64,000 nt of DNA from Escherichia phage vB_EcoM_E9. The stretch is from the sequence record PP886229. One strand, 5' to 3'. The stretch's first letter is position 1, and each line of letters starts with the position of its first letter. Below the pieces are notes generated by a model. It was not told the DNA's origin. It made no database searches and worked only from the letters and a program-made list of their open reading frames with translations. Of this stretch, positions 16,854 to 64,000 are shown piece after piece. The translations under genes were made by a program, and so were the position numbers.

Positions 16854-17753
16854 TTATTTACCTACTGACAGAGGTGCTTCAATCTTTCCTGCATGTTGGT
16901 AGTTGTTAATGCCACCAACAAAGTCACTTGCAGTGAGATGTTTTAAGTCACTTAAAGTGTTAAGTGGGATACCAATCTCAAAAGTAGGTGCATGGAACTC
17001 TTCATTGTTCAGTAGTTCATAAACCTGTTTCATGTGGTTCTGATAAATCTGGGTATCTCCAAAGACACCTATCAAGTACCGTGGAGTGTATCCAGTCATC
17101 TTACAAAGAACTTCCAGAATAAAGCCATAAGATGCAATATTAAACGGAAGTCCTAAAAAGGTGTCTACAGAACGCTGATACCATTGTAAGTCAACTTCAC
17201 CCTCGTTAGTGATATAAATCTGAAACAGAACATGACAAGGTGCTAAAGCCATTGAGTTTGCTGCAATATCTGCTGCATTCCAAGCATTAACAAGCATGTA
17301 ACGGTCTGTGATATCACCCTTCATCTTTGTTACTAAGGTCTCTAACTGGTCTACAACACAACCATTATGACCTTCAAAGTTTCTCCACTGAACCCCGTAG
17401 ATTCTTCCACCTGCATCTTCTAACCAATCTTGTTCAGAAGAGTAATTAGAGCTTAACCAGCGTTTAAAATCATCTGACCAGATTGTCCAACGTTCTCCAT
17501 CATTTTCACCCCAAGTGCGGTAACGGAGTTCACCCAGCTTATTCTCACCATTCAGGAACCATAAAGCTTCCCCAATAACTTGCCGTGTAAACACCTGTTT
17601 AGATGTTAAGAGTGGGAAACCAGTTCGCATATCAAAACGAAACTTAGGTGGAGCAAATGCAGAGATAACATCTCCAGTTCGTGTAGTACGCAGTTCACCA
17701 ACGGATAAAACATGGTTCAGGATATTTTTGTAACTTGAGTCTGCTTGTGACAT
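16854..17753 (-). CDS. thyA: thymidylate synthase
   Basis: 299 aa with catalytic motif ..ALAPCHVLFQIY..; adjacent to DHFR. Confidence 0.85.
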   Translation of the reverse strand: MSQADSSYKNILNHVLSVGELRTTRTGDVISAFAPPKFRFDMRTGFPLLTSKQVFTRQVIGEALWFLNGENKLGELRYRTWGENDGERWTIWSDDFKRWLSSNYSSEQDWLEDAGGRIYGVQWRNFEGHNGCVVDQLETLVTKMKGDITDRYMLVNAWNAADIAANSMALAPCHVLFQIYITNEGEVDLQWYQRSVDTFLGLPFNIASYGFILEVLCKMTGYTPRYLIGVFGDTQIYQNHMKQVYELLNNEEFHAPTFEIGIPLNTLSDLKHLTASDFVGGINNYQHAGKIEAPLSVGK

Positions 17754-17754
17754 A

Positions 17755-18300
17755 TCAAAAGTGTCCTTTTACTTGTGGTGTATAGATATCAAAAGTTGCT
17801 TTTCCATCTGCTGATGGTCTTGACTGAATCTTAGCAAAAATTTTACGGTCATGCAACTTGTCAAAGAAGTTCTCAAAAGGTAGATACACAGTTGCCTCTT
17901 CAGTCACTTCATGGAAAACTGTATGAAACACTACATCAGCATACGGTAAAGCACTGACAAGAATACCTGCACCACCAATTACGAAAACATCTTCTTCAAT
18001 ATTACTGTCAAGATACTTTAAAAATGCTCCAAAAGAGTCTTGATGAGCTTTAGCAAACATAACATCATCTTTACTAAAATCTATACCATAATAAGGCACA
18101 GAGTTTGTTAAGATAAGGTTTTCACGTTCAGGTAAAGGATTACTTCCCAGAGTCTTGAAAGTCTCGTTACCCATTACTACTAAGTTATCTTTAGTGAGTC
18201 TCTTAAACTCTTGCATGTCCTCTTTATGTCGAGGCCACGGCATACCAGTTGGAGTACCAAACTCCCCATTTTCACCACTTGCAAAGATTAACTTAATCAT
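17755..18300 (-). CDS. folA: dihydrofolate reductase
   Basis: 181 aa, N-terminus MIKLIFASGENGEFGTPTGMPWP matches DHFR signature; coupled to thymidylate synthase. Confidence 0.75.
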   Translation of the reverse strand: MIKLIFASGENGEFGTPTGMPWPRHKEDMQEFKRLTKDNLVVMGNETFKTLGSNPLPERENLILTNSVPYYGIDFSKDDVMFAKAHQDSFGAFLKYLDSNIEEDVFVIGGAGILVSALPYADVVFHTVFHEVTEEATVYLPFENFFDKLHDRKIFAKIQSRPSADGKATFDIYTPQVKGHF

Positions 18301-18557
18301 TTTGTAAATCCTCTCTTAATGAACCAGTTGATAACATTCTTCACAGCTTTATTGCTATGGTAGATTAAGTGTGGGGTAGGTTGGTATGAACCATAAGCCC
18401 AGAAAGCAATAATTTCACTACACCCTGTACACCTTGTACTCTCTTCGGCAATATGACCGTTGACTATTTCACTCACCTCACCTTGTAAGTCTGTACACCC
18501 ACAATGTGGACAACGGATAGGTGTTCCATCAGACTCATAGCAGTGTTCAATTTTCAT
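18297..18557 (-). CDS. small Cys-rich (zinc-ribbon-like) protein
   Basis: 86 aa with CPHCGC...CTGC. Confidence 0.35.
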   Translation of the reverse strand: MKIEHCYESDGTPIRCPHCGCTDLQGEVSEIVNGHIAEESTRCTGCSEIIAFWAYGSYQPTPHLIYHSNKAVKNVINWFIKRGFTK

Positions 18558-19073
18558 TTATTTAACCTCAAAAACTGGCTCAAGAACCAATATAAAGTCT
18601 ACACAGTCATCTTCTTCATCCAGAATACCATCAAAGTTCTTAGGAACGAAGTCGAAGAGGCTCATAACAAAACAGTCAGAAGTAACCCTAATAGTGCCTC
18701 CCATATTCTCTACAGTCAACACTGTACGACTTTCTTTTACCTCTCGCAGAAGATTGTTCACAAAGTCATCTAAGAAGTGCTTCATCAGTGACTTAAAGCC
18801 TTTAGGGTAATCTGTACCAGAGTATGTTTCAATCTGGGGCACAAGCTTAACATTTATACTAGTCTTTGTTAAGAACGTGCTAGAGAACATACTATCAGGT
18901 AACTTACAAACAATCTTTCCAGTACCTTCATGTTCAATCTCAACAAAACCAGCTTCATCGCCACATGTAACTATTTTAAAAGATGCTTCATTCTCATACT
19001 GTGAAGCCATAAACTTTTTAAGCATTTCTTTAAGGAAATCTGCATGAGCATCTTGTAAGTAGATATCAATCAT
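18558..19073 (-). CDS. hypothetical protein
   Basis: 171 aa ORF in co-oriented block. Confidence 0.35.
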   Translation of the reverse strand: MIDIYLQDAHADFLKEMLKKFMASQYENEASFKIVTCGDEAGFVEIEHEGTGKIVCKLPDSMFSSTFLTKTSINVKLVPQIETYSGTDYPKGFKSLMKHFLDDFVNNLLREVKESRTVLTVENMGGTIRVTSDCFVMSLFDFVPKNFDGILDEEDDCVDFILVLEPVFEVK

Positions 19074-19086
19074 AATTCATCACCTA

Positions 19087-19446
19087 TTATGGGAACAGAC
19101 ACTTAATGTCATCGTTTTTGAAAACGAAGCTTGTGTAGTTGTGACCGTCAACATCCAGCCAAACAGCCTGAACATCTACACCATCAAGATTGTGGTAAAG
19201 CTCTTTGATGAAGTGGTCTTTCACAATCTGGCTGCTAGTTGTTTCCAGCTTAATGTTTGAGATTGCTGAACCTACAGCCATATAACCCATTACACGTTTC
19301 TTCTCAGTATGCTTAATCTTACCATCTTTGTAAGCCATAATGAGATTGGAAAGAATCTTCACACCATAATACTTTTCAAGGTGAGTAGGTACACCATAAA
19401 AGCCTAATGCGAAGTTTTCAGAGTGGATAATGTTTTCACGTTTCAT
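19087..19446 (-). CDS. hypothetical protein
   Basis: 119 aa ORF. Confidence 0.35.
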   Translation of the reverse strand: MKRENIIHSENFALGFYGVPTHLEKYYGVKILSNLIMAYKDGKIKHTEKKRVMGYMAVGSAISNIKLETTSSQIVKDHFIKELYHNLDGVDVQAVWLDVDGHNYTSFVFKNDDIKCLFP

Positions 19447-19447
19447 A

Positions 19448-19777
19448 TTAATCTGCCAGCCTTAAATTAAAGTTAACACCAAATTTTTCACATACTTCCA
19501 ACATAAACTCAAGGGAGACATTACCAGTGAGATTGATTATGTTGGATACACGAGCCTGAGAGATACCACAAATTTTAGCAACTTGCTCTTGAGAAAGACC
19601 TCTGGATTTAATCTCTCTCTTAAAACGATGTGCAACGAAGTCTCTCATTTCGTCTACATCCATTGGACAAATATAACTCTCCATTTCAGCTTCTCTGTCA
19701 GCCTCCCAATCATCTTGTGGAGCATAAGGGTCAAAAACCTCATTCATCTTTCTTCTTCCGTTTGCGTGAAGTGTCAA
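19448..19777 (-). CDS. HTH (XRE/Cro-like) DNA-binding protein
   Basis: ..RGLSQEQVAKICGISQARVSNIIN.. helix-turn-helix signature. Confidence 0.45.
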   Translation of the reverse strand: MTLHANGRRKMNEVFDPYAPQDDWEADREAEMESYICPMDVDEMRDFVAHRFKREIKSRGLSQEQVAKICGISQARVSNIINLTGNVSLEFMLEVCEKFGVNFNLRLAD

Positions 19778-19953
19778 TCAATGAATCTATGTTTGTAGCC
19801 CTAACCTTTTCACGTTCATCGTTAAGATAATCATCGAGAATCTTTTCAATCTGTGAATCATCTTGACAGATGACTGTAAAGACTGTAAAGCCGTCTGTAT
19901 CATCAATTATCTTACCATAACCGCTTCTGGGATGTAACTTTTTAAGAGCCATA

Positions 19954-20337
19954 TCAAATACCTGTGCAGCTTCTGTTTTCTAAGAAATACTCAACACCAT
20001 ACATAGCTTTTTGCATCAAATCTTCTTTAAACTGAATACGATGATTAAGCATAACCTGTACATCAATATCATCATGGTGCTTCTCTTTAATATTTGCAGA
20101 TTGCAGGAAATACTCTGCAAGAACACGATACTGATAGTCAGTTACCTTATCCGTCATCTCTGTCAAAGACTCTTCAGAGATTGGTTTAAGCAACTCACCA
20201 TTAGATAGAGCAACACCTTTAACAATCTGACAAGTGTCTTCTGGAACACCTGATAAGTCCACATTTGGAAGTTCTGTTGCATTGACTGGTAAATTTATTG
20301 CCATAACCATTGCAGCAGCTAATAAAATCTTTTTCAT
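19954..20337 (-). CDS. secreted/periplasmic protein
   Basis: N-terminal signal peptide MKKILLAAAMVMAINLPVNA. Confidence 0.4.
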   Translation of the reverse strand: MKKILLAAAMVMAINLPVNATELPNVDLSGVPEDTCQIVKGVALSNGELLKPISEESLTEMTDKVTDYQYRVLAEYFLQSANIKEKHHDDIDVQVMLNHRIQFKEDLMQKAMYGVEYFLENRSCTGI

Positions 20338-20445
20338 AATGACCTCAAAGTTATATTAAATTTTGTATTACGTTGAGTATAAAAATAAGCTATAACACCT
20401 GACTTGTCAACAGATTTTATAGCTTATTTGGCAGATTTTTTATAA

Positions 20446-20697
20446 GGCTACTGCCATCCTTCCATACATTACCTCACCTGACCTGACCTGACCCTACCTA
20501 ACATTACCGTGCCACACCTCACTTAAAAACCCTCTTAAAAGACTCTTAAGTGATGTAATCGAATTTTTATGTAGCTCCGATTAACTACCCATACCTCACC
20601 TCATCCAACCATACCATGCCTTACCAGACCGCACCTTACCTTACTAAAAGACCCTGTTTAAAGACCTTTTAAAAAGGAGCCTCCGAAGAGGCTACCT
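20446..20697. repeat. composite G-depleted pentamer-periodic repeat, copy pair 1
   Basis: Two tandem units of about 110 nt, each with a 50-60 nt (ACCNN)n-like tract almost devoid of G on the + strand, joined by a hairpin linker; ends in conserved ..aaaaccctcttaaaagactcttaagtgatg / ..aaagaccttttaaaaagg. Confidence 0.7.
20676..20697 (-). terminator. hairpin terminator after gene 20705..21145
   Basis: AGCCTC-ttcg-GAGGCT hairpin directly downstream (minus strand) of the stop codon. Confidence 0.45.
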
Positions 20698-20704
20698 AGT
20701 CAAC

Positions 20705-21145
20705 TTAGAAAGGTTTTCTACGTTGCTTGTTAATGTTAGCTTTCATAGCAGCTAAATGGTTTTGCTGTTCAATCAGTCGTGAACGTTCTTGATGACTAAG
20801 TGCCATAGTGTTCACATTCTCAATCGCTTGAGTGGCTTGCTTTAAAGCTCGACCAATCTTGCCAGACATTTTACGTTTTGCAATAGTTGCTTGATGCTTA
20901 GGTTCAACCACACGATAACCAACACCCATTGAAGCAACCAGATAAATCTTCTCTTCTTTAAGAAGCTTCTCAATAAACTTCTCAAGTCGGTTTAGACGTG
21001 TAAGCGCATAAGCCTTCATTTCATCTTCGTACTTAACAATGTCACCTTGATAAGTTGGCTTCACAATACCTAAGAAGGTATCCATCTCAGAATGTGATAC
21101 AGTGTCACCGTAACTAAACTTTGCTGCTAATGCTTTTGTATTCAT
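20705..21145 (-). CDS. hypothetical protein in repeat-flanked module
   Basis: 146 aa ORF, basic C-terminus; no motif recognised. Confidence 0.45.
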   Translation of the reverse strand: MNTKALAAKFSYGDTVSHSEMDTFLGIVKPTYQGDIVKYEDEMKAYALTRLNRLEKFIEKLLKEEKIYLVASMGVGYRVVEPKHQATIAKRKMSGKIGRALKQATQAIENVNTMALSHQERSRLIEQQNHLAAMKANINKQRRKPF

Positions 21146-21147
21146 AA

Positions 21148-21753
<606 letters not shown>

Positions 21754-21827
21754 TTAGTTGATTGTTAAGTTGTTTGTAAAGAACCCTCAACAGAAGACTC
21801 TTTAGAAACTTGGTAGATTTTTAATGT

Positions 21828-22095
21828 GGCTACTACCATCCACCCATACCTCACAACACCATGCCATACCCGACCGGACAAGACCAGACCCTACCGCGCC
21901 AGACCTCATTAAAAGACCCTCTTTAAAGACCTTTTAAAAAGGTAAGTCTCATTTTAATGTAGCTGAGACTAACTACCCATACCCTACTTTACCTTACCGT
22001 ACCGTACTTTACCCGACCGTACCGGACAATACTTAACCCTACCTCACCCGACCGGACATCACTTAAAAACCCTCTTAAAAGACTCTTAAGTGATG
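21828..22095. repeat. composite G-depleted pentamer-periodic repeat, copy pair 2
   Basis: Second tandem pair of the same family with (NNACC)n-like tracts (..taccgtaccgtactttacccgaccgtaccggac..), linker hairpin with compensatory stem changes, same conserved ends. Confidence 0.7.
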
Positions 22096-22125
22096 CTGGT
22101 GAGTACCCGTTGGTTTATGCTGCTC

Positions 22126-22153
22126 AGTATACTCACCAAATTTTCTATGTCAA
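22126..22153 (-). promoter_or_regulatory. sigma70-like promoter reading into the repeat region (minus strand)
   Basis: Minus-strand TTGACA-N16-TATACT just downstream of the ligase stop; transcript would carry the G-rich repeat as a leader of about 350 nt. Confidence 0.4.
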
Positions 22154-22159
22154 CAACTT

Positions 22160-23263
22160 TTATTCATAATCTCGTATAACCAGCCCAACAGGGAACTGTA
22201 AAGACCCCTTACGAGTCATCTTCTGGAACTGAACCGTTAAAGGCTTCCCGATAAACTCTTCAGGATGCTCAGCAAGATACTGTTTCTTCTCATGAGTAGT
22301 CTTCCATGAGACATCTACAAAGACGTTAGGAAGAGTCTCTACAACGAACTTGCCATGACCACGTTTATCGGTCTTTACACCAGTCACTTTAAACTCTTCA
22401 GTGTGCATCTTCTTGTGTTTAATCAAGAAGTATGAACGGTGACAACACTCGTAGAAGGAGTCTTCAGAGATTGAACGGTACATTGCACCTTCAAACTTAG
22501 CTTCAACCCACTTATCATGAGCTTCATCGAACTCTTCCCAAGAATTTACACGACGAGACTTAACAGGGACAACTTTACAGCCATCTCTAAAGTCATTCAA
22601 TGGTGAAGTCTCAATAATATCTCTACGCTCAGGCCACGTCTTAGTACTGTCACAGATATCGTACCAGTAAAACTTGAGCAAGTGTCTGTCAGGATTGTCT
22701 TCATTTTTAATCATAGAGACAATATCTTCTAAGTCCCACCCATGAGCATAAATCTCTCCATCAAATTCATCAACATCTTTGTGGAGCCTTAACATTGCCA
22801 TAATGTCAGGTATTAGTTCAGTAGGGATTTTGTAAACAGTATTTTCACGAGAATATGCTGTGAATACACTGCCAATACTTAAGTGCCTTGAAATCCTACA
22901 ACGGACACCATCAAGTTTCGGTTGAGCATCAGCAGGGAACTTCAGATACTTCGCATGACTAACCTTTGCAGCATCATGAGCAAGCTGTACACCTACCTTC
23001 TCAGTATTCTGTGCAGACTCTTTTGTGTAAGCATAACCTTTGCGGTCAACTTGTTTTTTATACTTAGCAGCAACTTCAAAGAGAGCTTGCTGTTCAGCGT
23101 TACGCTCGTTCTTTTTACCGATGTTTTTAGGTTCTGCTGTATACTCTTCAAACATCATCTTGCCATTTTCTTTACCGTAGGTTGTAATAACTTTGTCACC
23201 TACAGCGACACATGACCAGACGTTAAAAGAGCCATCTTTATTTTGTTTGTATAGAGTTGTCAT
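22160..23263 (-). CDS. ATP-dependent DNA ligase
   Basis: Adenylation motif ..PKLDGVRCRI.. (KxDG); start set to internal ATG at 23263 with RBS agagga, overlapping the upstream stop. Confidence 0.75.
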   Translation of the reverse strand: MTTLYKQNKDGSFNVWSCVAVGDKVITTYGKENGKMMFEEYTAEPKNIGKKNERNAEQQALFEVAAKYKKQVDRKGYAYTKESAQNTEKVGVQLAHDAAKVSHAKYLKFPADAQPKLDGVRCRISRHLSIGSVFTAYSRENTVYKIPTELIPDIMAMLRLHKDVDEFDGEIYAHGWDLEDIVSMIKNEDNPDRHLLKFYWYDICDSTKTWPERRDIIETSPLNDFRDGCKVVPVKSRRVNSWEEFDEAHDKWVEAKFEGAMYRSISEDSFYECCHRSYFLIKHKKMHTEEFKVTGVKTDKRGHGKFVVETLPNVFVDVSWKTTHEKKQYLAEHPEEFIGKPLTVQFQKMTRKGSLQFPVGLVIRDYE

Positions 23264-23264
23264 T

Positions 23265-23456
23265 TTATTCCTCTGAGTGATACCAAGTGTTGCAAGCATT
23301 ACATGCGTAAAGCTCTAAGTCATTTTTATCTGGTTTATGAAAACAGTTTGCTCCGCAGTGGCAACGAAACGGCTTTCCACCAACTGTCAGGATGAAAGAT
23401 TGAACCTTTCCATCAGGAGTTCGTACAGCATTTTTATGCTTATCTTCTTTGTTCAT
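23265..23456 (-). CDS. small zinc-ribbon protein
   Basis: 63 aa with CHC...C and CNAC Cys pairs. Confidence 0.35.
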   Translation of the reverse strand: MNKEDKHKNAVRTPDGKVQSFILTVGGKPFRCHCGANCFHKPDKNDLELYACNACNTWYHSEE

Positions 23457-56929: not shown

Positions 56930-56995
56930 GAAACTCTGTAGAATATTCACAATAGGTTAAGCCTTTCTTATCTGGTAAATTTTTCAGGTAAGGAG

Positions 56996-57190
56996 GGCTT
57001 TTTCATTTCAGGATTGTGCAGGTAGAGTTCTGTAGAGAAATCTGTAGAGAGAATTTTGAACTCCAAAGAGAAAATTCATTTTCAAACTGTGCAGATAATC
57101 TCCAAAGAGCTTTTTCATTTTCAAAACGTGCAGACCCCGCTAAGGTCGGGCAAGAAAAATCATTTTCGAATTGTGCAGGTAGGTGGGTAC
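56996..57190. repeat. four direct iteron-like repeats (TTTTCATTTYCRAAAYTGTGCAG)
   Basis: Copies at about 56996, 57069, 57107 and 57155; ctccaaagag also duplicated; upstream of the first early promoter. Confidence 0.55.
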
Positions 57191-57356
57191 AGGTGGGAAT
57201 GTCGCCGTTTCTCACAAGGCTACCACATATGAAAAGAAAAGTCAACAGAAAAATTTGTAGCGGATTGAAAAATAATTCTTGATTGTAGTTCTGTTTTGTG
57301 GTAGTCGCGCGCCCGTTTCATTACAGTTTTTTGCAAAAATATTTTTAAAATTTTTC

Positions 57357-57445
57357 TTGACTCTCTGACTATGGTTATTTAATATTTGCATCAACGGGGG
57401 GCGATGACCTCCCAGCTAACTAACCTTAAACTAGGAGATTCAAAA
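57357..57445 (+). promoter_or_regulatory. early promoter plus conserved leader (type B variant)
   Basis: TTGACT-N17-TAATAT, leader hairpin GGGGGGCGATGACCTCCC, conserved RBS context ..ccttaaactaggagattcaaaaATG. Confidence 0.5.
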
Positions 57446-57826
57446 ATGGCTTATCGTGCACCTAAATTCATCAACAAAGACAACTTTCGCAACGTACTGG
57501 AGAAGGCACTTGATGAAAAATTTAACGGTAAAATAATTGTTGTTCATGCGTTCAATTTCAAGTATGATATCAACGGGAATAAAATCAACCATTACACGGC
57601 AACCATGTTAGATGGTACGCTATCAAGTGAAAAAGCCGTACTGAATGCACTGGCAGGACGCGGAAAAGTATTAGTAAGATGCGATAAGAGACGTTATCAG
57701 GGTGGCGCATATGGTTACGATGATGCTGTTTACCATCTTGAAAATATGGGCTATTCAGTGGAAAAAGCTGGAGCGTCTCAAATAATTGGCAGTGACGGCT
57801 ATGTGACAATTTTCAAAATTAACTGA
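57446..57826 (+). CDS. early small protein E1
   Basis: Start at ATG 57446 behind the conserved RBS; 126 aa. Confidence 0.5.
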   Translation: MAYRAPKFINKDNFRNVLEKALDEKFNGKIIVVHAFNFKYDINGNKINHYTATMLDGTLSSEKAVLNALAGRGKVLVRCDKRRYQGGAYGYDDAVYHLENMGYSVEKAGASQIIGSDGYVTIFKIN

Positions 57827-57991
57827 TAAAGTACTTTACAAGGGGCTTATAGTTCGATAAAGTAAGCCCCAGATAAAGAGCTTTACCACTCAATCCTAAA
57901 TTATAAAGTACTTTACAAGGGGCTTATAGTTCGATAAAGTAAGCCCCAGATAAAGAGCTTTACCACTCAATCCTAAATTGGAGATTCTAAA
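57827..57991 (+). promoter_or_regulatory. type A intercistronic element, tandem duplicate
   Basis: Two consecutive copies of aaagtactttacaaGGGGCTTAtagttcgataaagTAAGCCCCagataaagagctttaccactcaatcctaaatt, the second ending in RBS plus ATG. Confidence 0.55.
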
Positions 57992-58285
57992 ATGGCTATT
58001 ATCAAAAACGTTGTAATTACTGCAAAAACTCGCGATGACGCTCGCATCATGGCGAAAAAGTTAGGCGGGAAAGTTGTTGACAACGGAAAACAATCTGCTG
58101 TAAGATGGGGCGTGAAGACTGATAAACAGTTGAAGTTAAAAAATTCACCAATAAACCTTTTTACATGTGTAAACACTATCGGGAAGACAAATGTATACAC
58201 GAAAAAGGCATATATCAGACGCGTAGCCATGACATCACCTATTCGCACAATGAGAAGTCATGCAAAGCTGAAAATTAATCGTTAA
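57992..58285 (+). CDS. early small protein E2
   Basis: 97 aa, basic; conserved RBS. Confidence 0.5.
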   Translation: MAIIKNVVITAKTRDDARIMAKKLGGKVVDNGKQSAVRWGVKTDKQLKLKNSPINLFTCVNTIGKTNVYTKKAYIRRVAMTSPIRTMRSHAKLKINR

Positions 58286-58371
58286 AGTACTTTACAGGGG
58301 GCTTAAAAGCTGATATCTTAAGCCCCAGATAAAGAGCTTTACCACATTAATCCTAAACTGGAGATTCAAAA
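58286..58371 (+). promoter_or_regulatory. type A intercistronic element (covarying hairpin variant)
   Basis: Same flanks as other type A copies; hairpin is GGGGCTTAA-aagctgatatc-TTAAGCCCC, stem kept with a different loop. Confidence 0.55.
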
Positions 58372-58668
58372 ATGAAGTTAACAAATAAAGTCCGTGAAAA
58401 TTTAAGCAAGTTGCTCAACAAAATCAATTTTATTGAGACATCAAGAAATAGTCATGATGTTATGGAATGGTTACACGGAAAAATCAAAGGCCGTCGTGTA
58501 GTGATTTGCTTATGGAATAGTTGCAGGGAATATAAAAAACCTGTATTACAAGTCAATATCTATGATGATACTTTTAAAAGCCCTGTAAAGTCTAAAAGTG
58601 ATTTATTAGAATCCTATGAGATAACTGTAAATGGCAAAGTATCACGTAAAGAGGAAACACCATGTTAA
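58372..58668 (+). CDS. early small protein E3
   Basis: 98 aa. Confidence 0.5.
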   Translation: MKLTNKVRENLSKLLNKINFIETSRNSHDVMEWLHGKIKGRRVVICLWNSCREYKKPVLQVNIYDDTFKSPVKSKSDLLESYEITVNGKVSRKEETPC

Positions 58669-58994
58669 TGACTGGTATCACTGCAATCATTGCCATTTTC
58701 GCGCTATATAAGGCATATAAAGCCTATAATCTAGCAAATAAGGCAATCACACAGCAGGTTAGCAATAGCCTTGTAGAAAGCTTTCTAGGGCGTCTCAGTG
58801 ATGAGCAAATAAAGCGGTTAGAAATGAGCTTCAGATTCAAAGCGAAAACCTATCAGATAAGTGACATCTTCAAGGATGATTTCCAGTTAGTCGATGATTA
58901 TAATTCTCTGATAAATGCTTTAAATATCAGTGACTTAAAAGACTACTACGCTGTAATTGTTCAAGAATTGAGCAAACGAAAAAATTTCTCTTGA
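58662..58994 (+). CDS. early small membrane protein E4
   Basis: 110 aa, N-terminal TM helix (GITAIIAIFALYKAY); overlaps E3 stop. Confidence 0.45.
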   Translation: MLMTGITAIIAIFALYKAYKAYNLANKAITQQVSNSLVESFLGRLSDEQIKRLEMSFRFKAKTYQISDIFKDDFQLVDDYNSLINALNISDLKDYYAVIVQELSKRKNFS

Positions 58995-59084
58995 TTTTGG
59001 TTTTCAAAACAAGTAAATTACTAATCAACGGGGAGGGAATGACCTTCCCCACTAAGTAAAGTCCTTAAACTAGGAGATTCAAAA
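58991..59084 (+). promoter_or_regulatory. type B promoter-leader module
   Basis: TTGATT-N17-TAAATT (-35 overlaps the E4 stop codon), leader hairpin GGGAA-tgacc-TTCCC, conserved RBS context. Confidence 0.55.
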
Positions 59085-59357
59085 ATGTACACTACTAACA
59101 ACGGTCGCACCTTAAACGTAACACTGCGCCACTATGTGAACGGTGTAATGCACTTCGAGGATTTACAAGCTGAACAGCACATCTTAGATTGGCAACTTGC
59201 AGGACTCCAAAAAGCTGCTACCGGATACGGGAAAAAGATTCCAACTAGCTGGAAAGTATACTACGAAGGACGTTTGCGCAGAATTTATCAAGATGTATGC
59301 AGCAATAGCGCATCAAGTTACATCATAGTAAAAGGTAAAAAGCTGCATTTAGCATAA
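59085..59357 (+). CDS. early small protein E5
   Basis: 90 aa. Confidence 0.5.
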   Translation: MYTTNNGRTLNVTLRHYVNGVMHFEDLQAEQHILDWQLAGLQKAATGYGKKIPTSWKVYYEGRLRRIYQDVCSNSASSYIIVKGKKLHLA

Positions 59358-59442
59358 AGTACTTTACAAGGGGCTTATAGTTCGATAAAGTAAGCCCCAG
59401 ATAAAGAGCTTTACCACTCAATCCTAAATTGGAGATTCAAAA
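59358..59442 (+). promoter_or_regulatory. type A intercistronic element
   Basis: Identical to copy at 57827. Confidence 0.55.
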
Positions 59443-59847
59443 ATGACTATTAATAATCGTGAGTTATCAATCTTAAAAGCACGTTTGACCGTTAACCGGA
59501 TTAATGTTATTACATCATCAGCACCGGATGAGACATTGCACAACATTATCGGGAAGATTCAAAGTGTTATCTTAGACGTTGAAAGCGTAAAAAACTCACT
59601 GGCTGACGTTGCAGCAGGTATCACGCTAGACGGTGCACAATATGAAATGGCTGACATGTTAGGCAAATCTAAGGTAATGAATAAAGAGCTTGATTTAAAA
59701 ATGTTCCGCTTTGCCGTGAAAGTGTGGCTATCTGTCGAGTATGACGCAAATTTTGCAATCGCTGACTTTTTCGCAACATGGTTGCAACGTAATTTAACAA
59801 ATCATGATTTTCGTGATATCTGCGACGTAATTTACGCAGAACTTTAA
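59443..59847 (+). CDS. early small protein E6
   Basis: 134 aa. Confidence 0.5.
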   Translation: MTINNRELSILKARLTVNRINVITSSAPDETLHNIIGKIQSVILDVESVKNSLADVAAGITLDGAQYEMADMLGKSKVMNKELDLKMFRFAVKVWLSVEYDANFAIADFFATWLQRNLTNHDFRDICDVIYAEL

Positions 59848-59856
59848 AAATTTCTC

Positions 59857-59950
59857 TTGATTTTGGTTTTCAAAACAAGTAAATTACTAATCAACGGGGA
59901 GGGAATGACCTTCCCCACTAAGTAAAGTCCTTAAACTAGGAGATTCAAAA
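59857..59950 (+). promoter_or_regulatory. type B promoter-leader module
   Basis: Near-identical to 58991..59084. Confidence 0.55.
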
Positions 59951-60154
59951 ATGGCTACTATTAACGGCTTAAACATTGAAACTACTCACATCAAAGATAT
60001 CAAAGTTGGCGATATAGTCCTTTTTCACGGCGTAGAAAAAACCGTCACTGAAAAGGATATCAAGGAGGATTCATTCATGGGCCGGACTCTCTTCGGTGAT
60101 TCTTATTGCTTAGGTTACCTTGCAGTTTTAAAAGTTGTCAAAAATAACCGTTAA
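59951..60154 (+). CDS. early small protein E7
   Basis: 67 aa. Confidence 0.45.
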   Translation: MATINGLNIETTHIKDIKVGDIVLFHGVEKTVTEKDIKEDSFMGRTLFGDSYCLGYLAVLKVVKNNR

Positions 60155-60240
60155 AGTACTTTACAAGGGGCTTATAGTTCGATAAAGTAAGCCCCAGATA
60201 AAGAGCTTTACCACATTAATCCTAAACTGGAGATTCAAAA
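60155..60240 (+). promoter_or_regulatory. type A intercistronic element
   Basis: Same hairpin and flanks as 57827 copy, ..cacattaatcctaaactggagattcaaaaATG 3' end. Confidence 0.55.
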
Positions 60241-60783
60241 ATGAAATGCTTTCACGGTACTACTCAAGAAAACTTCGTCAACCTGATTAATAACGGTGAT
60301 AAACCATCAGGCGCATGGAATTGTTCGGATATGGATGGCAATTTTTACGTTTATCCAGAAAATAAAATCTATGGCGACGATGAGGAAGAAATAATCTCTG
60401 AAGGCATTCAACAAGCTTTAGGTAATGCCACTATAACGGCAGCTTTTCAGATGAAAACTCAAAACATTGTTATCTTGGAACTTGATATTCCAGAAGATGA
60501 GTTGAATGATGATTATTCTTGTGATAATATGTCGAGTGTGGCAAGTTTTACAGAGTATTTTGATATAAGCTGGATTAAAAAGGTTTATATCACTGAATTT
60601 AATGCTATGTTTTCACCTTTTTGTCTTCCTTCACTGGATAACCCGAACTTAAACTATCTTGATGAGTCTCTGGAACTTCTCGCTAAAAGTGTTCAGCAAT
60701 CGGACAGTATTCAGGTTTTTTGTGACATCATGGATACACTAACAGGAAACATTGCAGAAGAGGATTTGAAGAGTTTTTTCTAA
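60241..60783 (+). CDS. early acidic protein E8
   Basis: 180 aa, strongly acidic (..GDDEEEIISEG.., ..LDIPEDELNDDYSCDN..). Confidence 0.5.
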   Translation: MKCFHGTTQENFVNLINNGDKPSGAWNCSDMDGNFYVYPENKIYGDDEEEIISEGIQQALGNATITAAFQMKTQNIVILELDIPEDELNDDYSCDNMSSVASFTEYFDISWIKKVYITEFNAMFSPFCLPSLDNPNLNYLDESLELLAKSVQQSDSIQVFCDIMDTLTGNIAEEDLKSFF

Positions 60784-60849
60784 AAACCTATGCAATCACC
60801 TTATAAACACTGATTAGCCCCTCACAGGGGCTTTTAGGAGGCTTTAATC

Positions 60850-61083
60850 ATGCTTACAACCATTTACCTCATCCTTTCTATCTGTAATGGTCATTCGTGT
60901 GACTTTAAAGGGCTTGAAGAGTTTACAGGAAGTAAAGAAAATGCTATTCAAGTGTGCCAGATAGCAAGGCAAGACTATCCCGCCAGTGATGATATACAAT
61001 GTTACTTTAAGACAGAAGATGAAGACGGTGTCTATTTTGACAGCGTAGACGGTCAATATGAAATTATCATTGAAAAAGACTAG
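60850..61083 (+). CDS. early small protein E9
   Basis: 77 aa, preceded by hairpin AGCCCCtcacaGGGGCT and RBS aggagg. Confidence 0.45.
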   Translation: MLTTIYLILSICNGHSCDFKGLEEFTGSKENAIQVCQIARQDYPASDDIQCYFKTEDEDGVYFDSVDGQYEIIIEKD

Positions 61084-61172
61084 ACAAGCCTGATAAAAGT
61101 CTGTAAATTGTCAATCAACGGGAGGTAATAACCTCCCCACTAAGTAAAGTCCTTAAACTAGGAGATTCAAAA
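61081..61172 (+). promoter_or_regulatory. type B promoter-leader module (variant)
   Basis: TAGACA-N17-TAAATT; leader hairpin GGGAGG-taataa-CCTCCC (stem and loop differ, pairing kept). Confidence 0.5.
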
Positions 61173-61514
61173 ATGGCTTATGTAACCGTAATTACCGACA
61201 AAGCTGGCTCATCTTGGTCAACTCAAGTAAGCGATAAGATGTCACCTATGCAGTGCCTAAAATACTTTGAGCAATGGAACAAAGGCGAGGGTGTCAGCCC
61301 CTTTCAAGTGATGCAGATTATCCATACAGATAACGAAGGGAATAAAACTGTTTTGAATAGTGAGTACTACGCAACCAGATTTGAAACGAGATGTAAAGCG
61401 ATGAAGATATTACGCGAGTCTGGCTATTCTCATATTGCCTCACTAATCTGGGATGACCTGCTAAAAAATCAGCGTATCAGCTATGTAAAACCTGAAAAAA
61501 TATTCATCAGTTAA
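61173..61514 (+). CDS. early small protein E10
   Basis: 113 aa. Confidence 0.5.
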   Translation: MAYVTVITDKAGSSWSTQVSDKMSPMQCLKYFEQWNKGEGVSPFQVMQIIHTDNEGNKTVLNSEYYATRFETRCKAMKILRESGYSHIASLIWDDLLKNQRISYVKPEKIFIS

Positions 61515-61643
61515 TCAACAACTTACAAAAAACTTTTAAAAAGATGTTGACAATCCCTCTTGACATTGGTAACTTTGTTCGAGGGGGTTTATCTAAAAGG
61601 GATTAACTTAAAAGATTCTTTATAGATAAGCTTAAAAAATTGC

Positions 61644-61735
61644 TTGCAATCAGATATCAAAACAAGTAAATTACTAATCAACGGGGAGGGATGACCTCCC
61701 TACTAAATAAAGTCCTTAAACTAGGAGATTCAAAA
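61644..61735 (+). promoter_or_regulatory. type B promoter-leader module
   Basis: TTGCAA-N17-TAAATT, leader hairpin GGGAGG-gatga-CCTCCC; extra TTGACA hexamers and a hairpin in the 220 nt spacer upstream. Confidence 0.5.
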
Positions 61736-62266
61736 ATGAACAAGTTCAAAGCTATCAACTACATTCGCTCAAATAGTGTCATGTCTAAGCCTGTTAAGGA
61801 TACCTACGAATTCCGTTGCAATGGTGAACACTTTGCTACCATCACCAAATCAAACAACGGGGCTTATTATATCCATCGTCGTAATGTTTCTACGGTTGTA
61901 GTTTCTAACTTTATGCAAGCTGTAGCGGAACTCCTCCCGCTCTTCTTAGAAAAGTATGCCGTACAGTGTGAAAGTGTTCGTGAATGCACTAAAACAGTGT
62001 TAAACGGTTATCGTATGGCTTACGAGCGCTCTTTAAAGAGTCTCAATAAATACTACAAAGCACCGGAAGGCACTTCATCCACAGCCTACGGGGTAGGGGG
62101 CTTCAATGTCAGCCTTTACGAAGTGGAAGAAATCGAGCTTTATGACCATCGCCCAAATGGTTACGCTAAGACACTGGGAGAGGGGTTAATGCTGAATATC
62201 AAGAACTTAGAAAAAACTTTAAGAGAAATTGAAAAAGATATTGACGAGACAATCAAAAGTCTGTAA
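61736..62266 (+). CDS. early protein E11
   Basis: Start at ATG 61736 behind conserved RBS; 176 aa. Confidence 0.5.
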   Translation: MNKFKAINYIRSNSVMSKPVKDTYEFRCNGEHFATITKSNNGAYYIHRRNVSTVVVSNFMQAVAELLPLFLEKYAVQCESVRECTKTVLNGYRMAYERSLKSLNKYYKAPEGTSSTAYGVGGFNVSLYEVEEIELYDHRPNGYAKTLGEGLMLNIKNLEKTLREIEKDIDETIKSL

Positions 62267-62331
62267 ATTGTCAATCAACGGGGAGGGAATGACCTTCCCC
62301 ACTAAGTAAAGTCCTAAACTGGAGATTCAAA
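62241..62331 (+). promoter_or_regulatory. type B promoter-leader module embedded in the 3' end of E11
   Basis: TTGACG-N17-TAAATT with the -35 inside the E11 coding sequence; leader hairpin GGGAA-tgacc-TTCCC. Confidence 0.5.
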
Positions 62332-62595
62332 ATGGAACACGTAGAACTGACCACACTCTTACAAATCGCAACCGACAAGGAAGACGTAGCATTATTTCAC
62401 CGTATCGAAAGTGATTTGTTCAATGGTGAAATCATCAAAGAGTCTTACGAGGTTGTCGGATTCAAAGACGGTAAAGCATTTGGCTTTTTTGACCTCGACA
62501 AAAGCAAAGCGGTTACAAAGTACGATGTTCTATCTTGTGAGATTCTTACAAAATACAACGAAAAAAGGCTTGCAACATACGCCAACATGCAGTAA
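62332..62595 (+). CDS. early small protein E12
   Basis: 87 aa. Confidence 0.5.
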   Translation: MEHVELTTLLQIATDKEDVALFHRIESDLFNGEIIKESYEVVGFKDGKAFGFFDLDKSKAVTKYDVLSCEILTKYNEKRLATYANMQ

Positions 62596-62660
62596 ATTAC
62601 TAATCAACGGGGAGGGATGACCTCCCTACTAAATAAAACCTTAAACTAGGAGATTCTAAA
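62570..62660 (+). promoter_or_regulatory. type B promoter-leader module
   Basis: TTGCAA-N18-TAAATT overlapping E12 stop; leader hairpin GGGAGG-gatga-CCTCCC. Confidence 0.5.
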
Positions 62661-62909
62661 ATGGCTACTATCCGCGCAACTGTTAACGAATTCGGCTTTT
62701 GCTCTCTGGATGTTAAATTTGACCTTGTAGGTACTGATAACGCCTTTGAGATGGTGAAAGGTCTTATCAATCAGACCATAAAAGACTATAAACCTTCTGA
62801 TGAGTTCTGGGAGGAAACAAAACAGGAAGTTCTTACGCATGGTCACACTTATCACTATTGGGGAGAAAAAATCGTCTCCCTGTACTACGACAAAGAAGGC
62901 ACTAACTAA
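62661..62909 (+). CDS. early small protein E13
   Basis: 82 aa; last gene before a terminator and a long non-coding region. Confidence 0.5.
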   Translation: MATIRATVNEFGFCSLDVKFDLVGTDNAFEMVKGLINQTIKDYKPSDEFWEETKQEVLTHGHTYHYWGEKIVSLYYDKEGTN

Positions 62910-62947
62910 ACGCCGCAACGGGGCTAAATAGCCCCAGATACCTTTAC

Positions 62948-62972
62948 AGCCCCTTAAATGGGGCTTTTTTAC
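62948..62972 (+). terminator. rho-independent terminator closing the early gene array
   Basis: AGCCCC-ttaaat-GGGGCT followed by TTTTTT; preceded by hairpin GGGGCTaaatAGCCCC. Confidence 0.6.
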
Positions 62973-63009
62973 GTCTTATCAAAGCTCTATACAATCCCTT
63001 TCCTTCCCT

Positions 63010-63065
63010 TTCCAGAATCTATCCCACTAATTCGACAGAATCTATCCCACTAATTCGACAGAATC
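63010..63065. repeat. tandem direct repeat cagaatctatcccactaattcga (2.5 copies)
   Basis: Two perfect 25 nt units plus a partial third. Confidence 0.6.
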
Positions 63066-63359
63066 TATCTCGTACCTTAAAAGCAATAACTCTATAGCTT
63101 ACTCTATAGCCCCTTATCAAATCAACTTAAATAAAAGCCAATAACCCCCAGAAAGGGGATGGCCCATTTAAACGCTCTATAAAGCTCTATAACAGCCTTA
63201 TCAACCTAACTTAAGGGATTGCATTAACCCACTCTAAAAAGCCCTTTATAAAGCTTCCTATAGCCTCAAAAGAATCTTATAAGGGTGTAAGCTTTATCAT
63301 CTCGTTAGCTATCTTGTGAATAACTCAATAACCCTTGATAGTCTCTAAAAAGTATGTTA

Positions 63360-64000
63360 TAGGGGCTGTTAAGTTACTTTGAAGTTACGTAAAAGAGGCT
63401 ACAAAGTTACGTAAATGCTAGCCCCCTTAACATTCTCTTAACAATTTCTTAACAATCCCTACATAGTTATGCTTGTTAGAGACTTGTTAGCCCCTTGTTA
63501 AATCTCTGTTAAGACCACGTAAAAGCCTTGTAAGAGTCTTTAGCATAGCCTTTAAAGCCTCTGTAAAGCCCTATAAAGAGGTGTCTACATAGTTGGGGTG
63601 TAATTACTAGGAAGAGACTTAAAAGAGCTTACAAAGAGCTATAGAGAACTTTTAAGAGGTATGTTTAGAGAATCACTAAGAAAGAGAGGGAACTATAGAC
63701 CAAGAGATAGTGACCATGTTAATAGCTTGTTAAAAAGATTAAACACTTGTTAGGAATTTGTTAATTATCTTAACAAAATAACTCTTAAAAATTAACTTGT
63801 TAGCTCTTATTAGTCATCTGTTAAGACTCTGTAAAACCTATGTATCAACTGTTAAGAAACTGTTACACCCTTGTTAGCTCTGTTAAGAATCTGTTAAGAC
63901 CTCTGAAGAGATGTTAAGAGGTTGTAAGAACTGTTAAGAGATTGTTAAGGATATTTTAAAATTTTGCAAAGGGGATGTTACAGGGATGTTAAGGGCTACC
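63360..64000. repeat. array of YTGTTARG motifs, helically phased at the 3' end
   Basis: At least 15 copies of (c/t)tgtta(a/g)g(a); from about 63849 to 63945 ten copies recur every 9-11 bp; no ORF of 60 aa or more; array runs to the window edge. Confidence 0.6.

Follow-up and report, generated by a model that had tools for sequence, protein, structure and literature searches.

Escherichia phage vB_EcoM_E9 (record PP886229), of which a window of 64,000 nucleotides was analysed and assigned to Felixounavirus, carries a repeated unit of about 95 bases, here called the Type B module, in front of many of its small genes of unknown function. The promoter type of this repeat is conserved, its hairpin keeps a fixed position with lineage-specific sequences, and breakpoints of synteny between related phages lie within the modules. 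Judged by their parts, the Type B units appear to be PeSL-type cassettes, in architecture and not by descent. PeSLs are the promoter-early stem-loop cassettes of the T4-like phages RB49, phi1, PST and nt-1 (Arbiol et al. 2010, PMC2839356; Comeau et al. 2014, PMC4122927), and we found no report of such cassettes in Felix O1-like phages in the literature. We consider it rather probable that in this Felix O1-like phage the Type B modules act as regulatory cassettes of PeSL type, uniting a sigma70 promoter, a hairpin that protects the 5' end and homology for recombination.

Layout and promoters of the array

Seven Type B modules lie within 57357-62663, and all seven copies listed in the original prediction, the first at 57357, are present at their places. 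Together with five sister modules of Type A they amount to 12 modules in 5.6 kb, bounded on both sides by terminators:

56959-57010, + strand: canonical intrinsic terminator (Felix O1 t13), closing the upstream operon; left boundary of the array
57357-57448, + strand: Type B module 1, first promoter of the cluster; -35 TTGACT 57357-57362, -10 TAATAT 57380-57385, hairpin GGGGGGCGAUGACCUCCC 57396-57413, ATG 57446
57826-57994, + strand: tandem pair of Type A sister modules, 57826-57902 truncated and 57903-57994 complete
58282-58374, + strand: Type A sister module
58991-59087, + strand: Type B module 2; -35 TTGATT 58991-58996, -10 TAAATT 59014-59019, hairpin GGGGAGGGAAUGACCUUCCCC 59030-59050, ATG 59085
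59354-59445, + strand: Type A sister module
59857-59953, + strand: Type B module 3; -35 TTGATT, -10 59880-59885, hairpin 59896-59916, ATG 59951
60151-60243, + strand: Type A sister module
61081-61175, + strand: Type B module 4; -35 TAGACA 61081-61086, -10 61104-61109, hairpin GGGAGGUAAUAACCUCCC 61120-61137, ATG 61173
61644-61738, + strand: Type B module 5; -35 TTGCAA 61644-61649, -10 61667-61672, hairpin GGGGAGGGAUGACCUCCCU 61683-61701, ATG 61736
62241-62334, + strand: Type B module 6; -35 TTGACG 62241-62246, -10 TAAATT 62264-62269, hairpin 62280-62300, ATG 62332
62570-62663, + strand: Type B module 7; -35 TTGCAA 62570-62575, -10 62593-62598, hairpin 62609-62627, ATG 62661
62948-62975, + strand: canonical intrinsic terminator (Felix O1 t23); right boundary of the array

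The order of parts in Type B is -35, 17-nt spacer, -10, 10 nt ending in ATCAAC, GC hairpin, AU-rich leader, SD and ATG. Downstream of the hairpin the leader reads ...CCTTAAACTAGGAGATTCAAAAATG; its 22-nt end occurs six times in the window at up to 3 mismatches (0.00 expected from shuffles), the seventh copy having an indel there, and modules 2 and 3 are 97-100% identical. The tandem Type A pair is built differently, as TTTACA-N17-TAAAGT with an inverted repeat (GGGGCUUA..UAAGCCCC) that spans spacer and -10. All ten scanned proteins of the cluster, including all seven whose genes follow Type B modules, fall into PHROGs of unknown function. For Felix O1, ORFs 13, 16, 20, 21 and 22 have been described as reaching maximal expression 5 min after infection.

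The spacer is exactly 17 nt in all seven window copies, as originally proposed. The accompanying -35 motif, TTGAYN or TTGCAA, fails in module 4, where a weak TAGACA contains the stop codon TAG (61081-61083), and the -10 TAAATT holds for six copies, with TAATAT in module 1. The likeness to a sigma70 promoter held when 132 unique copies, drawn from three genera of Ounavirinae and with 72 distinct 17-nt spacers, were compared: the -35 T-T-G is retained in 129, 113 and 127 of the 132 (86-98%), and an A-tract lies 5-9 nt 5' of the -35 (-37..-33 counted from the end of the -10), with A in 65-95% of copies at five positions. Since TTG and the upstream A-tract are kept across 72 differing spacers, they form a sigma70 promoter signature, by which the Type B units appear to carry a host-type promoter. 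The transcription start, and with it the placing of the hairpin in the 5' UTR, is predicted from promoter geometry (near A59027 in module 2); no mapping of a transcription start or RNA end was found in the literature for any Felix O1-like phage.

Stop codons lie in or adjoin the -35, spacer or -10, and their positions confirm that the -35 elements at 58991, 62241 and 62570 fall within the preceding coding sequence or overlap its stop. In module 2, TGA (58992-58994) is embedded in the -35 TTGATT. In modules 6 and 7 the -10 TAAATT opens with the stop TAA (62264-62266 and 62593-62595), so that -35 and spacer are upstream coding sequence.

Position, sequence and folding of the hairpin

In 105 of 122 unique leaders exactly 10 nt separate the -10 from the first paired G. 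In the predicted transcript this spacing puts the start of the hairpin at about +4 and implies an unpaired tail of about 3 nt before the stem. At this one position we counted 54 unique hairpins with 30 distinct arm pairs, nearly all beginning with GGG and ending with CCC, and the arms are specific to lineages (GGGGAGGG..CCUUCCCC, GGGGC..GCCCC, GGGA..UCCC, GGGGAAG..CUUCCCC). Stems measure 4-8 bp. For the commonest window hairpin the original prediction had given a 5-bp stem, GGGAA/TTCCC, in place of which the best stem has 8 bp (GGGGAGGG/CCUUCCCC) with one G.U pair and the loop AAUGA. The loops (AAUGA, GAUGA, GAAA, GAGA, AAGCAA, AACA, AAAUCA) are 4-9 nt long, and their differences among copies suggest a generic rather than a protein-specific structure.

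Arms fold with their own partners at a mean of -9.9 kcal/mol, compared with -7.6 when swapped (0/5000 permutations). Paired cells reach 96.7% versus 86.1% in shuffles, and the covariation score is 0.247 versus 0.118 in shuffles (0/500) and lower in every slid register, in an alignment that was registered on individually predicted stems and is therefore biased towards structure, and over module copies that are related and homogenised within genomes and so represent few independent events. Stem pairs 4-6 take GC, AU, GU and CG types; the majority of stem pairs are invariant G-C. A selected stem-loop had been argued from compensatory changes among the window copies. The selection, as judged by between-genera covariation above controls and by the swap test, stands, and covariation appears to be present between genera but not truly among the window copies: their three variants are set apart by indels of a single base and by a U/C change that turns G.U into G-C, which amounts to a shift of register and not to compensation.

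Half of the unique hairpins (27/54) contain a G.U pair, equivalent to an A.C mismatch on the opposite strand. The G.U pairs render the + strand fold the more stable one, the commonest hairpin reaching -13.7 kcal/mol versus -10.3 for its reverse complement. The minimum-energy fold includes the hairpin in five of six leaders, and single leaders beat their shuffles modestly (z -0.7 to -2.0, a weak effect). The array's first promoter has no upstream cistron, and its hairpin is nevertheless found in all three genera in six differing sequences; its retention there, behind a canonical terminator (from 56959), supports a role in the cassette's own mRNA. The hairpin is dispensable, since it is missing from promoters resembling Type B that Mooglevirus and Suspvirus have at a single orthologous site, and from one module of HP1. 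A search of the whole window against Rfam 15 gave no match at gathering score, the sole match below E = 1, a miRNA hit within a Type A module, being due to chance.

Synteny breakpoints, distribution and likeness to PeSLs

We compared the window region with 23 relatives, taking the ends of BLAST blocks as breakpoints. Of 56 synteny breakpoints, 45 fall inside modules, which make up 21.7% of the region (P = 1.5e-20), a statistic that is inflated because block ends gather at junctions of repeat and gene. As a general tendency, BLAST block ends fall at junctions between conserved repeats and divergent genes. Whole genes between two module copies are missing in relatives: two related loci, FO1a among them, lack the three genes of 59956-61104 and retain one hybrid module, and five loci lack the single gene of 62338-62592. 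The proposal that a gene and its downstream promoter form a shuffled unit is borne out by the breakpoints within modules and by the way in which -35 and spacer are fused to the upstream gene at its 3' end. The modules thus appear to be sites of gene gain and loss between related phages, as known for T4-like phages, and recombination would be the cause of the indels. Overall, the three claims of the original prediction survive the tests on related genomes, although the evidence first cited for them was weaker than the conclusion. That prediction did not recognise an architecture already described under the name PeSL for T4-like phages.

By BLAST, the Type B module occurs at 1388 places in 247 phage records, nearly all named as Escherichia, Salmonella, Shigella or Citrobacter phages. 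The fetched module-bearing records with a complete lineage are all Ounavirinae; two others have an incomplete or wrong lineage. No T4-like record was matched by the Type B module at module length in the BLAST search.

Type B and PeSL nevertheless share their parts: an A/T-rich stretch holding the upstream stop, a promoter of sigma70 consensus, a stem-loop of the GGGG..CCCC kind that includes G.U pairs, and SD and ATG before a small gene of unknown function. Both form dense arrays in a variable region, and both bound indels, insertions and replacements between close relatives. The positional subclasses also correspond, Type A to PeSLs with the stem-loop 'between -35 and -10 / overlapping -10' and Type B to those with it 'downstream of the -10'. 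With RB49 the translation-initiation stretch GGAGAATCAAAAATG is shared exactly over 16-19 nt, ATCAAGAC after the -10 is similar to Type B, and the stem-loop of PeSL191/190 (GGGGAGGAUAACUCCCC) may be set beside a Moogle one (GGGGAGGGAAACUCCCC). The differences are that the felixounaviral carrier belongs to Ounavirinae, is about 88 kb and is not one of the Straboviridae; that homology of module length is lacking by BLAST, the stretches shared with RB49 covering only 16-19 nt; and that the Type B stem lies 10 nt past the -10, inside the predicted transcript and not immediately ahead of the start. The PeSLs of RB49 and phi1 have measured promoter activity, and the stem-loop of RB49 PeSL211/210 lowered lacZ expression as strongly as rrnB T1; the PeSL authors placed one mini-circle crossover in the loop and speculated on a protein binding GGGG..CCCC (PMC2839356; PMC4122927). 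The promoter, terminator and mini-circle activities are thus measurements on RB49, to which Type B is likened from sequence. In Type A and most RB49 PeSLs the equivalent GGGG..CCCC hairpin precedes the predicted start and cannot cap the cassette's own mRNA; as its position differs by class, a single common function would have to act on read-through RNA or on DNA.

Candidate functions of the hairpin

Protection of the mRNA 5' end appears to be the most likely function of the Type B hairpin. The hairpin of the ompA 5' UTR, in the 1992 work of Emory, Bouvet and Belasco, reportedly is a 5'-terminal stabiliser of E. coli mRNA. Type B would resemble this type of stabiliser in having a stable hairpin a few unpaired nucleotides from the predicted 5' end, followed by an AU-rich single-stranded leader, and in that the stem sequence would be unimportant provided that pairing holds. 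It differs in that its 5' end is a predicted one and in that the element is repeated on many phage genes instead of belonging to one long-lived mRNA. Intercistronic hairpins are also known to protect upstream mRNA segments, and the T7 early region contains RNase III sites; the likeness to these lies in hairpins between cistrons of a multi-promoter early region in a lytic coliphage, with a cuttable AU-rich stretch after them. RNase III itself needs a helix of roughly 20 bp. An RNase III processing site was rejected for Type B, with its stems of 4-8 bp and no consistent extended helix in the read-through context; a longer helix, with interruptions, forms in Type A only.

Termination or attenuation of polymerase arriving from upstream cassettes, with re-initiation at the promoter, is the interpretation given by the PeSL authors and by the annotators of ASO1A, whose GenBank record labels these modules 'promoter' immediately followed by 'rho-independent terminator (WebGeSTer)'. 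Like an intrinsic terminator, the Type B hairpin is short, G/C-rich and intergenic; the RB49 stem-loop equalled rrnB T1, the hairpins of Type A and RB49 can act only on read-through RNA because they precede the start, and the array has 12 promoters with at most one internal canonical terminator. We nevertheless consider termination unlikely for Type B. It lies downstream of a promoter, not at the end of a transcription unit, and lacks a U-tract: none of the 54 variants is followed by a T-run, the downstream sequence being ACTAAGTAAAG, AACAATCC or ACTTCC, and a consensus scan of intergenic + strand DNA flags only the two flanking terminators, at 56959-57000 and 62948-62965. An efficient terminator past the predicted start would moreover abort its own transcript, and the first module, with no upstream gene and behind a strong terminator, keeps the hairpin in all genera. 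Action of the inverted repeat in DNA, as a binding or crossover site for recombination proteins or as a cruciform driving cassette exchange, would make the RNA fold incidental. The concentration of breakpoints in modules, the PeSL crossover in the loop with its speculated GGGG..CCCC-binding protein, and the sharing of one hairpin type by RB49, Type A and Type B at differing promoter positions would fit; but a palindrome that is imperfect as duplex in half of the unique hairpins (G.U being A.C opposite), arms and loops too diverse by lineage to suit a sequence-specific DNA-binding protein, and about 75 nt of near-identity that suffices for ordinary homologous recombination make it quite improbable.

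There is little reason to regard the hairpin as a functionless passenger, spread by gene conversion and varied by slippage in its G- and C-runs. Copies within a genome do tend to share a hairpin type, suggesting concerted evolution, many variants differ only in the length of these runs, and modules without a hairpin are viable. Against this, unrelated hairpin sequences occupy the same position across lineages with the first paired base fixed 10 nt past the -10, loops are far more variable than stems, pairing is better between own arms than between swapped ones, and unrelated T4-like phages retain an equivalent element. The least credible reading, to which we assign only a very slight chance, is an operator for an RNA-binding regulator (a translational repressor, a nut/boxB-like antiterminator or a nuclease target) that switches the early set jointly. 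A common 5' element on many early mRNAs would indeed permit coordinated control. In lambda nut, boxB is a small G/C stem with a conserved loop recognised by an N-like protein, and the likeness extends to a purine-rich or GNRA-like loop near an early promoter (GAAA and GAGA on a G/C stem in Mooglevirus) and to a conserved linear motif before it, the invariant ATCAAC. However, Type B stems differ and loops of 4-9 nt have unrelated sequences across copies and genera, for which a nut/boxB-type antiterminator hairpin was rejected; the array lacks downstream terminators needing override; and ATCAAC overlaps the predicted start and may be promoter context, with a similar ATCAAGAC after the RB49 -10. 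No Rfam family matched, and among the ten scanned cluster proteins, all without known function, no N-like protein or other candidate partner was identified.

Under the favoured reading, protection of the 5' end within a PeSL-type cassette, host sigma70 would use an early promoter of A-tract, -35, 17-nt spacer and -10, with a transcribed leader of constant layout behind it. The start would be the A of TC-A-AC, 8 nt past the -10; the RNA would begin with about 3 unpaired nucleotides and then fold a G/C-rich hairpin of 4-8 bp, followed by an AU-rich stretch, the SD GGAG and ATG. As a generic RNA structure, the hairpin would shield its own mRNA from 5'-end-dependent decay (RppH, RNase E), and on read-through transcripts from upstream cassettes it may mark the border of the cistron. 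With one cassette per gene, each small accessory gene would have its own promoter and a standard 5' end. The same stretch from -10 to ATG, about 75 nt and near-identical between copies, would also provide homology for recombination, which may delete, insert and swap units of leader, gene and promoter between related phages.

Promoter-leader modules in a Felix O1-like gene cluster

Megablast of positions 57300-63000 returned 255 phage records, almost all named for Escherichia, Salmonella, Shigella or Citrobacter, with Escherichia phage vB_EcoM_I14.1 as the top match (93% identity); by similarity, these matches assign the window to Felixounavirus (Ounavirinae), a myovirus of ~88 kb. The GenBank lineage of vB_EcoM_I14.1 (PP892526.1) reads Demerecviridae; Tequintavirus, yet its genome is that of a Felix O1-like myovirus, and the lineage of vB_EcoM_D4 (PP886228.1) ends at Caudoviricetes; both look like database labelling errors. 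The stretch from 56959-57000 to 62948-62965, the counterpart of Felix O1 genes 14-23 (bounded by terminators t13 and t23), holds ~17 small genes, all on the + strand, of which the 10 whose proteins were scanned all belong to PHROG families of unknown function. Here, seven promoter-hairpin-leader units (Type B) alternate with five copies of a second family, Type A.

Features of the module array (window coordinates)
56959-57000, + strand: canonical terminator, left flank of the array
57357, 58991, 59857, 61081, 61644, 62241 and 62570, + strand: -35 starts of Type B copies 1 to 7
57826-57994, + strand: Type A modules, TTTACA-N17-TA...T promoters
58282-58374, + strand: Type A module, same promoter type
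59354-59445, + strand: Type A module, same promoter type
60151-60243, + strand: Type A module, same promoter type
62948-62965, + strand: canonical terminator, right flank of the array

Checked base by base, all seven Type B copies lie where the original prediction had placed them, and the stop codons it had seen overlapping -35 or -10 are correct. The -35 and -10 are exactly 17 nt apart in every copy; the -10 reads TAAATT in six and TAATAT in one, and is followed by 10 nt ending in ATCAAC, a G/C-rich hairpin, the leader (C)ACTAAGTAAAGTCCTTAAACTAGGAGATTCAAAA and ATG. The 22-nt end of this leader occurs six times, against 0.00 expected. The -35 of copy 4, TAGACA, departs from the TTGAYN or TTGCAA ascribed to all copies, and the commonest stem, described as GGGAA/TTCCC, is in fact an 8-bp GGGGAGGG/CCUUCCCC with one G.U pair. 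Since -35 and spacer vary and frequently fall in coding sequence, whereas the stretch from -10 to ATG is near-identical among copies, the physical unit is a gene plus its downstream promoter, with the shared leader as a homology stretch. The feature is real and conserved, and its initial interpretation is right in outline.

A 106-nt module query matched 1388 places in 247 records, nearly all from phages named for the same four hosts; the genera among the fetched records were Felixounavirus, Mooglevirus and Suspvirus. For comparison, we took the homologous cluster from 12 annotated genomes and from IMG/VR contigs and collected all leaders preceding the SD context that they share. Because the IMG/VR pattern scan gave many chance single matches in unrelated contigs, only multi-hit contigs of ~88 kb were kept.

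When 132 unique module copies were aligned on the -10, the T, T and G of the -35 were present in 129, 113 and 127 copies, respectively, at exactly 17-nt spacing. The hexamers enclose 72 different spacer sequences, and an A-tract, with A in 65-95% of copies, precedes the -35 by 5-9 nt. Such hexamers, conserved and constant in distance with free sequence between them, argue that the Type B unit is a sigma70 promoter under selection. By geometry, its predicted start is the A of TC-A-AC, 8 nt past the -10, so that position -1 is a pyrimidine and +1 a purine; for copies 1 to 7 the predicted positions are 57393, 59027, 59893, 61117, 61680, 62277 and 62606. We rejected a promoter that would lie beyond the hairpin and use the TAAAGT of the leader, since it has no -35 at a distance of 16-18 nt. 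In the Felix O1 paper, RT-PCR showed ORFs 13, 16, 20, 21 and 22 to be maximal at 5 min after infection; our literature search found no transcriptomes or start-site maps for Felix O1-like phages.

Several other elements lie in and around the array. The hairpin GCCCCUCACAGGGGC followed by UUUU at 60817-60835, directly before the SD of gene 60850-61083 (which is without its own module), is the sole canonical-looking terminator inside it. At 61540-61640, upstream of Type B copy 5, a promoter-like TTGACA-N17-TAACTT site precedes a strong stem-loop of ~18 bp, GGUUUAUCUA..UAGAUAAGC; this element (fold -27.5 kcal/mol, z = -3.86), conserved in sequence in Mooglevirus and Suspvirus, could be a small RNA or processing site. 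Between the left terminator and the first Type B promoter, TTTCATTTYNNNAYTGTGCAGR occurs four times (56996-57180) and may be a phage-specific promoter or regulator box; in FO1a and Moogle, the promoter that precedes rIIA likewise has GTGCAG close to its -35 position. The stretch 62980-64000 is gene-free over >1 kb and dense in short repeats of the TGTTAAGA / CTTGTTAG type, spaced ~10-11 or 31 nt apart, with CAGAATCTATC three times at 23-nt intervals (63013-63069; copies one and two extend to CAGAATCTATCCCACTAATTCGA). Its counterpart in the relatives HP1 and PC79-13 lies immediately before the annotated terminal repeat, and the repeats look like iterons or a packaging/replication site.

Pairing, strand and diversity of the hairpin

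The distance from the -10 to the first paired G is exactly 10 nt in 105 of 122 unique hairpin leaders and 11 nt in a further 11. At this position we found 54 unique hairpins, whose 30 distinct arm pairs fall into several classes unrelated to one another: GGGGAGG(G)..(C)CUUCCCC, GGGAGG..CCUCCC, GGGGC/GGGC/GGGGU..GCCC(C), GGGA-AACA-UCCC and GGGGAAG..CUUCCCC. Their loops (AAUGA, GAAA, GAGA, AAGCAA, AACA) are unrelated, and one stem pair varies between A-U (SUSP2), G.U (most copies) and G-C (the CCUCCC forms). Within the window, the covariation proposed earlier does not hold up, as what separates the variants is indels of one base and a switch from G.U to G-C, neither of them compensatory.

Across hairpins, an alignment-free partner-swap test, in which 3' halves were exchanged, weakened the mean fold from -9.9 to -7.6 kcal/mol, and none of 5000 permutations matched the native value. 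In a structure-registered alignment, N-padded and built from individually predicted stems and thus biased towards structure, 96.7% of cells pair (86.1% in shuffles) and covariation is 0.247 versus 0.118 shuffled (0/500), with two-sided changes at five pairs and lower scores for all slid registers. We take these comparisons to suggest selection on hairpin pairing; the support is real but moderate, because the alignment derives from predicted stems, the copies are not independent of one another and the three outer pairs hardly ever depart from G-C. No consensus structure emerged when MAFFT and RNAalifold were applied to 48 diverse leaders, as stem and loop indels were misaligned. When leaders were folded singly, the hairpin was part of the minimum-energy structure in five of six Type B leaders, at z-scores of only -0.7 to -2.0. 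Every leader fold also includes a small predicted hairpin, UCCU-uaaacu-AGGA (59063-59076, with an equivalent place in every module), in which an invariant upstream UCCU pairs with part of the SD; its sequence is invariant and so is evidence neither for nor against pairing.

Half the hairpins (27 of 54) contain G.U pairs, where the opposite strand would have A.C mismatches, and the commonest hairpin folds at -13.7 kcal/mol compared with -10.3 for its complement; this points to an RNA, or at least a + strand, structure and not a duplex-DNA palindrome. The element is dispensable, since promoters without a hairpin exist in a single HP1 module and, in Mooglevirus and Suspvirus, at one orthologous site. 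Rfam, searched at gathering score and at E <= 1, returned nothing relevant. We rejected a leader peptide starting at the loop ATG (ATGACC...), which follows an SD-like GGAGG at 2-3 nt, is missing from copy 4 and most other genera, and has no conserved frame. Mimicry of the 16S rRNA 3' end (GAUGACCUCCCUA vs GAUCACCUCCUUA) was set aside because a 5' arm resembling an SD necessarily brings with it a 3' arm resembling an anti-SD, and because the likeness is missing from the other hairpin classes. For Type B, no extended helix that could be an RNase III site forms consistently in read-through RNA, and the stems are too short for this enzyme.

Probable recombination between modules and likeness to PeSLs

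Megablast blocks chained between the window cluster and 23 related loci placed 45 of 56 breakpoints inside modules, which make up 21.7% of the region (binomial P = 1.5e-20). Many events carry a cassette-indel signature, namely a gene-sized gap in one genome and blocks overlapping by one module length. Three genes (59956-61104) are absent from two related loci including FO1a, where one hybrid Type B module remains; one gene (62338-62592) is absent from five loci, 61738-62592 and 61733-62263 from further ones, and other genomes hold additional genes at 59088, 59953 and 61173. The earlier proposal that a gene plus its downstream promoter is shuffled as a unit fits both these breakpoints and the often coding -35 and spacer. 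A cassette that unites promoter, standard leader and recombination joint is well supported.

In Type A, the inverted repeat GGGGYUUA..UAAGCCCC spans spacer and -10, with the predicted start just past the stem; interior pairs covary between genera (UUAUC/GAUAG, UUUAUA/UAUAAG, UUUAA/UUAAG), and the whole 93-nt module is predicted to fold into a long interrupted helix (-24.3 kcal/mol, z = -3.26). The Type A modules at 57826-57994 form a tandem partial duplication with a 77-nt offset, single-copy in 11 related loci, which looks like a recent product of recombination or slippage between modules.

The Felix O1 genome paper lists module sequences only as 39-bp and 57-bp direct repeats, not among promoters; in the wV8 record they appear as DR_1 to DR_9, the ASO1A record gives a promoter and immediately afterwards a "rho-independent terminator", and the wV8 and VpaE1 genome papers do not discuss the repeats. 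In T4-like phages, the promoter-early stem-loop cassettes (PeSLs) combine a strong sigma70 promoter, A/T-rich in its upstream region, with a stem-loop of the GGGG..CCCC type, and fall into five positional subclasses. Situated in hyperplastic regions, where they separate small genes of unknown function, they bring about modular shuffling and the formation of mini-circles. The architecture is the same here, Type B matching the "downstream of -10" and Type A the "spacer / overlapping -10" subclass. Read directly, the RB49 PeSLs (17098-23308, minus strand) have the layout of the Felix O1-like modules and share ATCAAGAC after the -10; in the translation-initiation stretch GGAGAATCAAAAATG, 16-19 nt are an exact match, with nothing comparable in a reversed control, and the PeSL191/190 stem-loop GGGGAGGAUAACUCCCC is nearly identical to a Moogle Type B hairpin, although in RB49 it sits in the spacer. 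This local likeness could reflect convergence or exchange between phage families. The module query found no module-length homology to T4-like phages, and Type B units are therefore PeSL members by architecture. The Ounavirinae modules are of the PeSL kind already described in T4-like phages, here in a new group; in the literature searched, we did not find the concept applied to Felix O1-like phages.

Role of the hairpin and meaning for phage cassettes

The reading we favour, and consider somewhat probable, is a PeSL-type cassette whose hairpin is an RNA structure that would protect the cassette's own mRNA at its 5' end and, in read-through RNA, delimit the cistrons. A role at the cassette's own 5' end would be consistent with a hairpin fixed at about +4 of the predicted transcript and generic in sequence, and with the array's first promoter, which follows a strong terminator without an upstream cistron and keeps a hairpin in every genus, in six different sequences. 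Against an exclusive 5' role, Type A modules (by prediction) and most RB49 PeSLs carry the equivalent hairpin before the start site, where it could therefore act only on read-through RNA or DNA.

That the hairpin is instead an attenuator or terminator is unlikely, and the terminator reading is weak for Type B: no hairpin variant is followed by a U-run, and a terminator just past the start site would abort its own transcript. A recombination site acting at the DNA level is less likely again, and we regard a passenger sequence as more doubtful still. At the low end stands a specific regulator site, as the unrelated loops speak against a loop-specific binding protein. We give an equally slim chance to a dedicated cassette-exchange system, common to the unrelated enterobacterial T4-like Krischvirus and Felix O1-like Ounavirinae, in which the GGGG..CCCC hairpin is the element for recognition or crossover. 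Such a system could explain the near-identical translation-initiation stretch and GGGGAGG..CUCCCC stem-loop of RB49 and Mooglevirus; if it existed, the hairpin would be a phage analogue of integron attC sites, and promoter-equipped gene cassettes would move between phage families during co-infection.

The PeSL-type reading corrects the database annotation of the hairpin as a terminator right behind a promoter and makes precise predictions: a start at the A 8 nt past TAAATT and a 5' hairpin with a 3-nt tail. With >50 natural hairpin variants on an otherwise constant promoter and leader, the series could be used to study effects of 5' structure on mRNA life and expression, or as standard expression parts. 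The PeSL principle, in which self-contained promoter-hairpin-leader cassettes serve both as expression units for accessory genes and as recombination joints, now reaches beyond T4-like phages to Felix O1, wV8, Bas63 and relatives, therapeutic and typing phages that form a second, unrelated group; this suggests a general way for lytic phages to organise and exchange their host-takeover genes.
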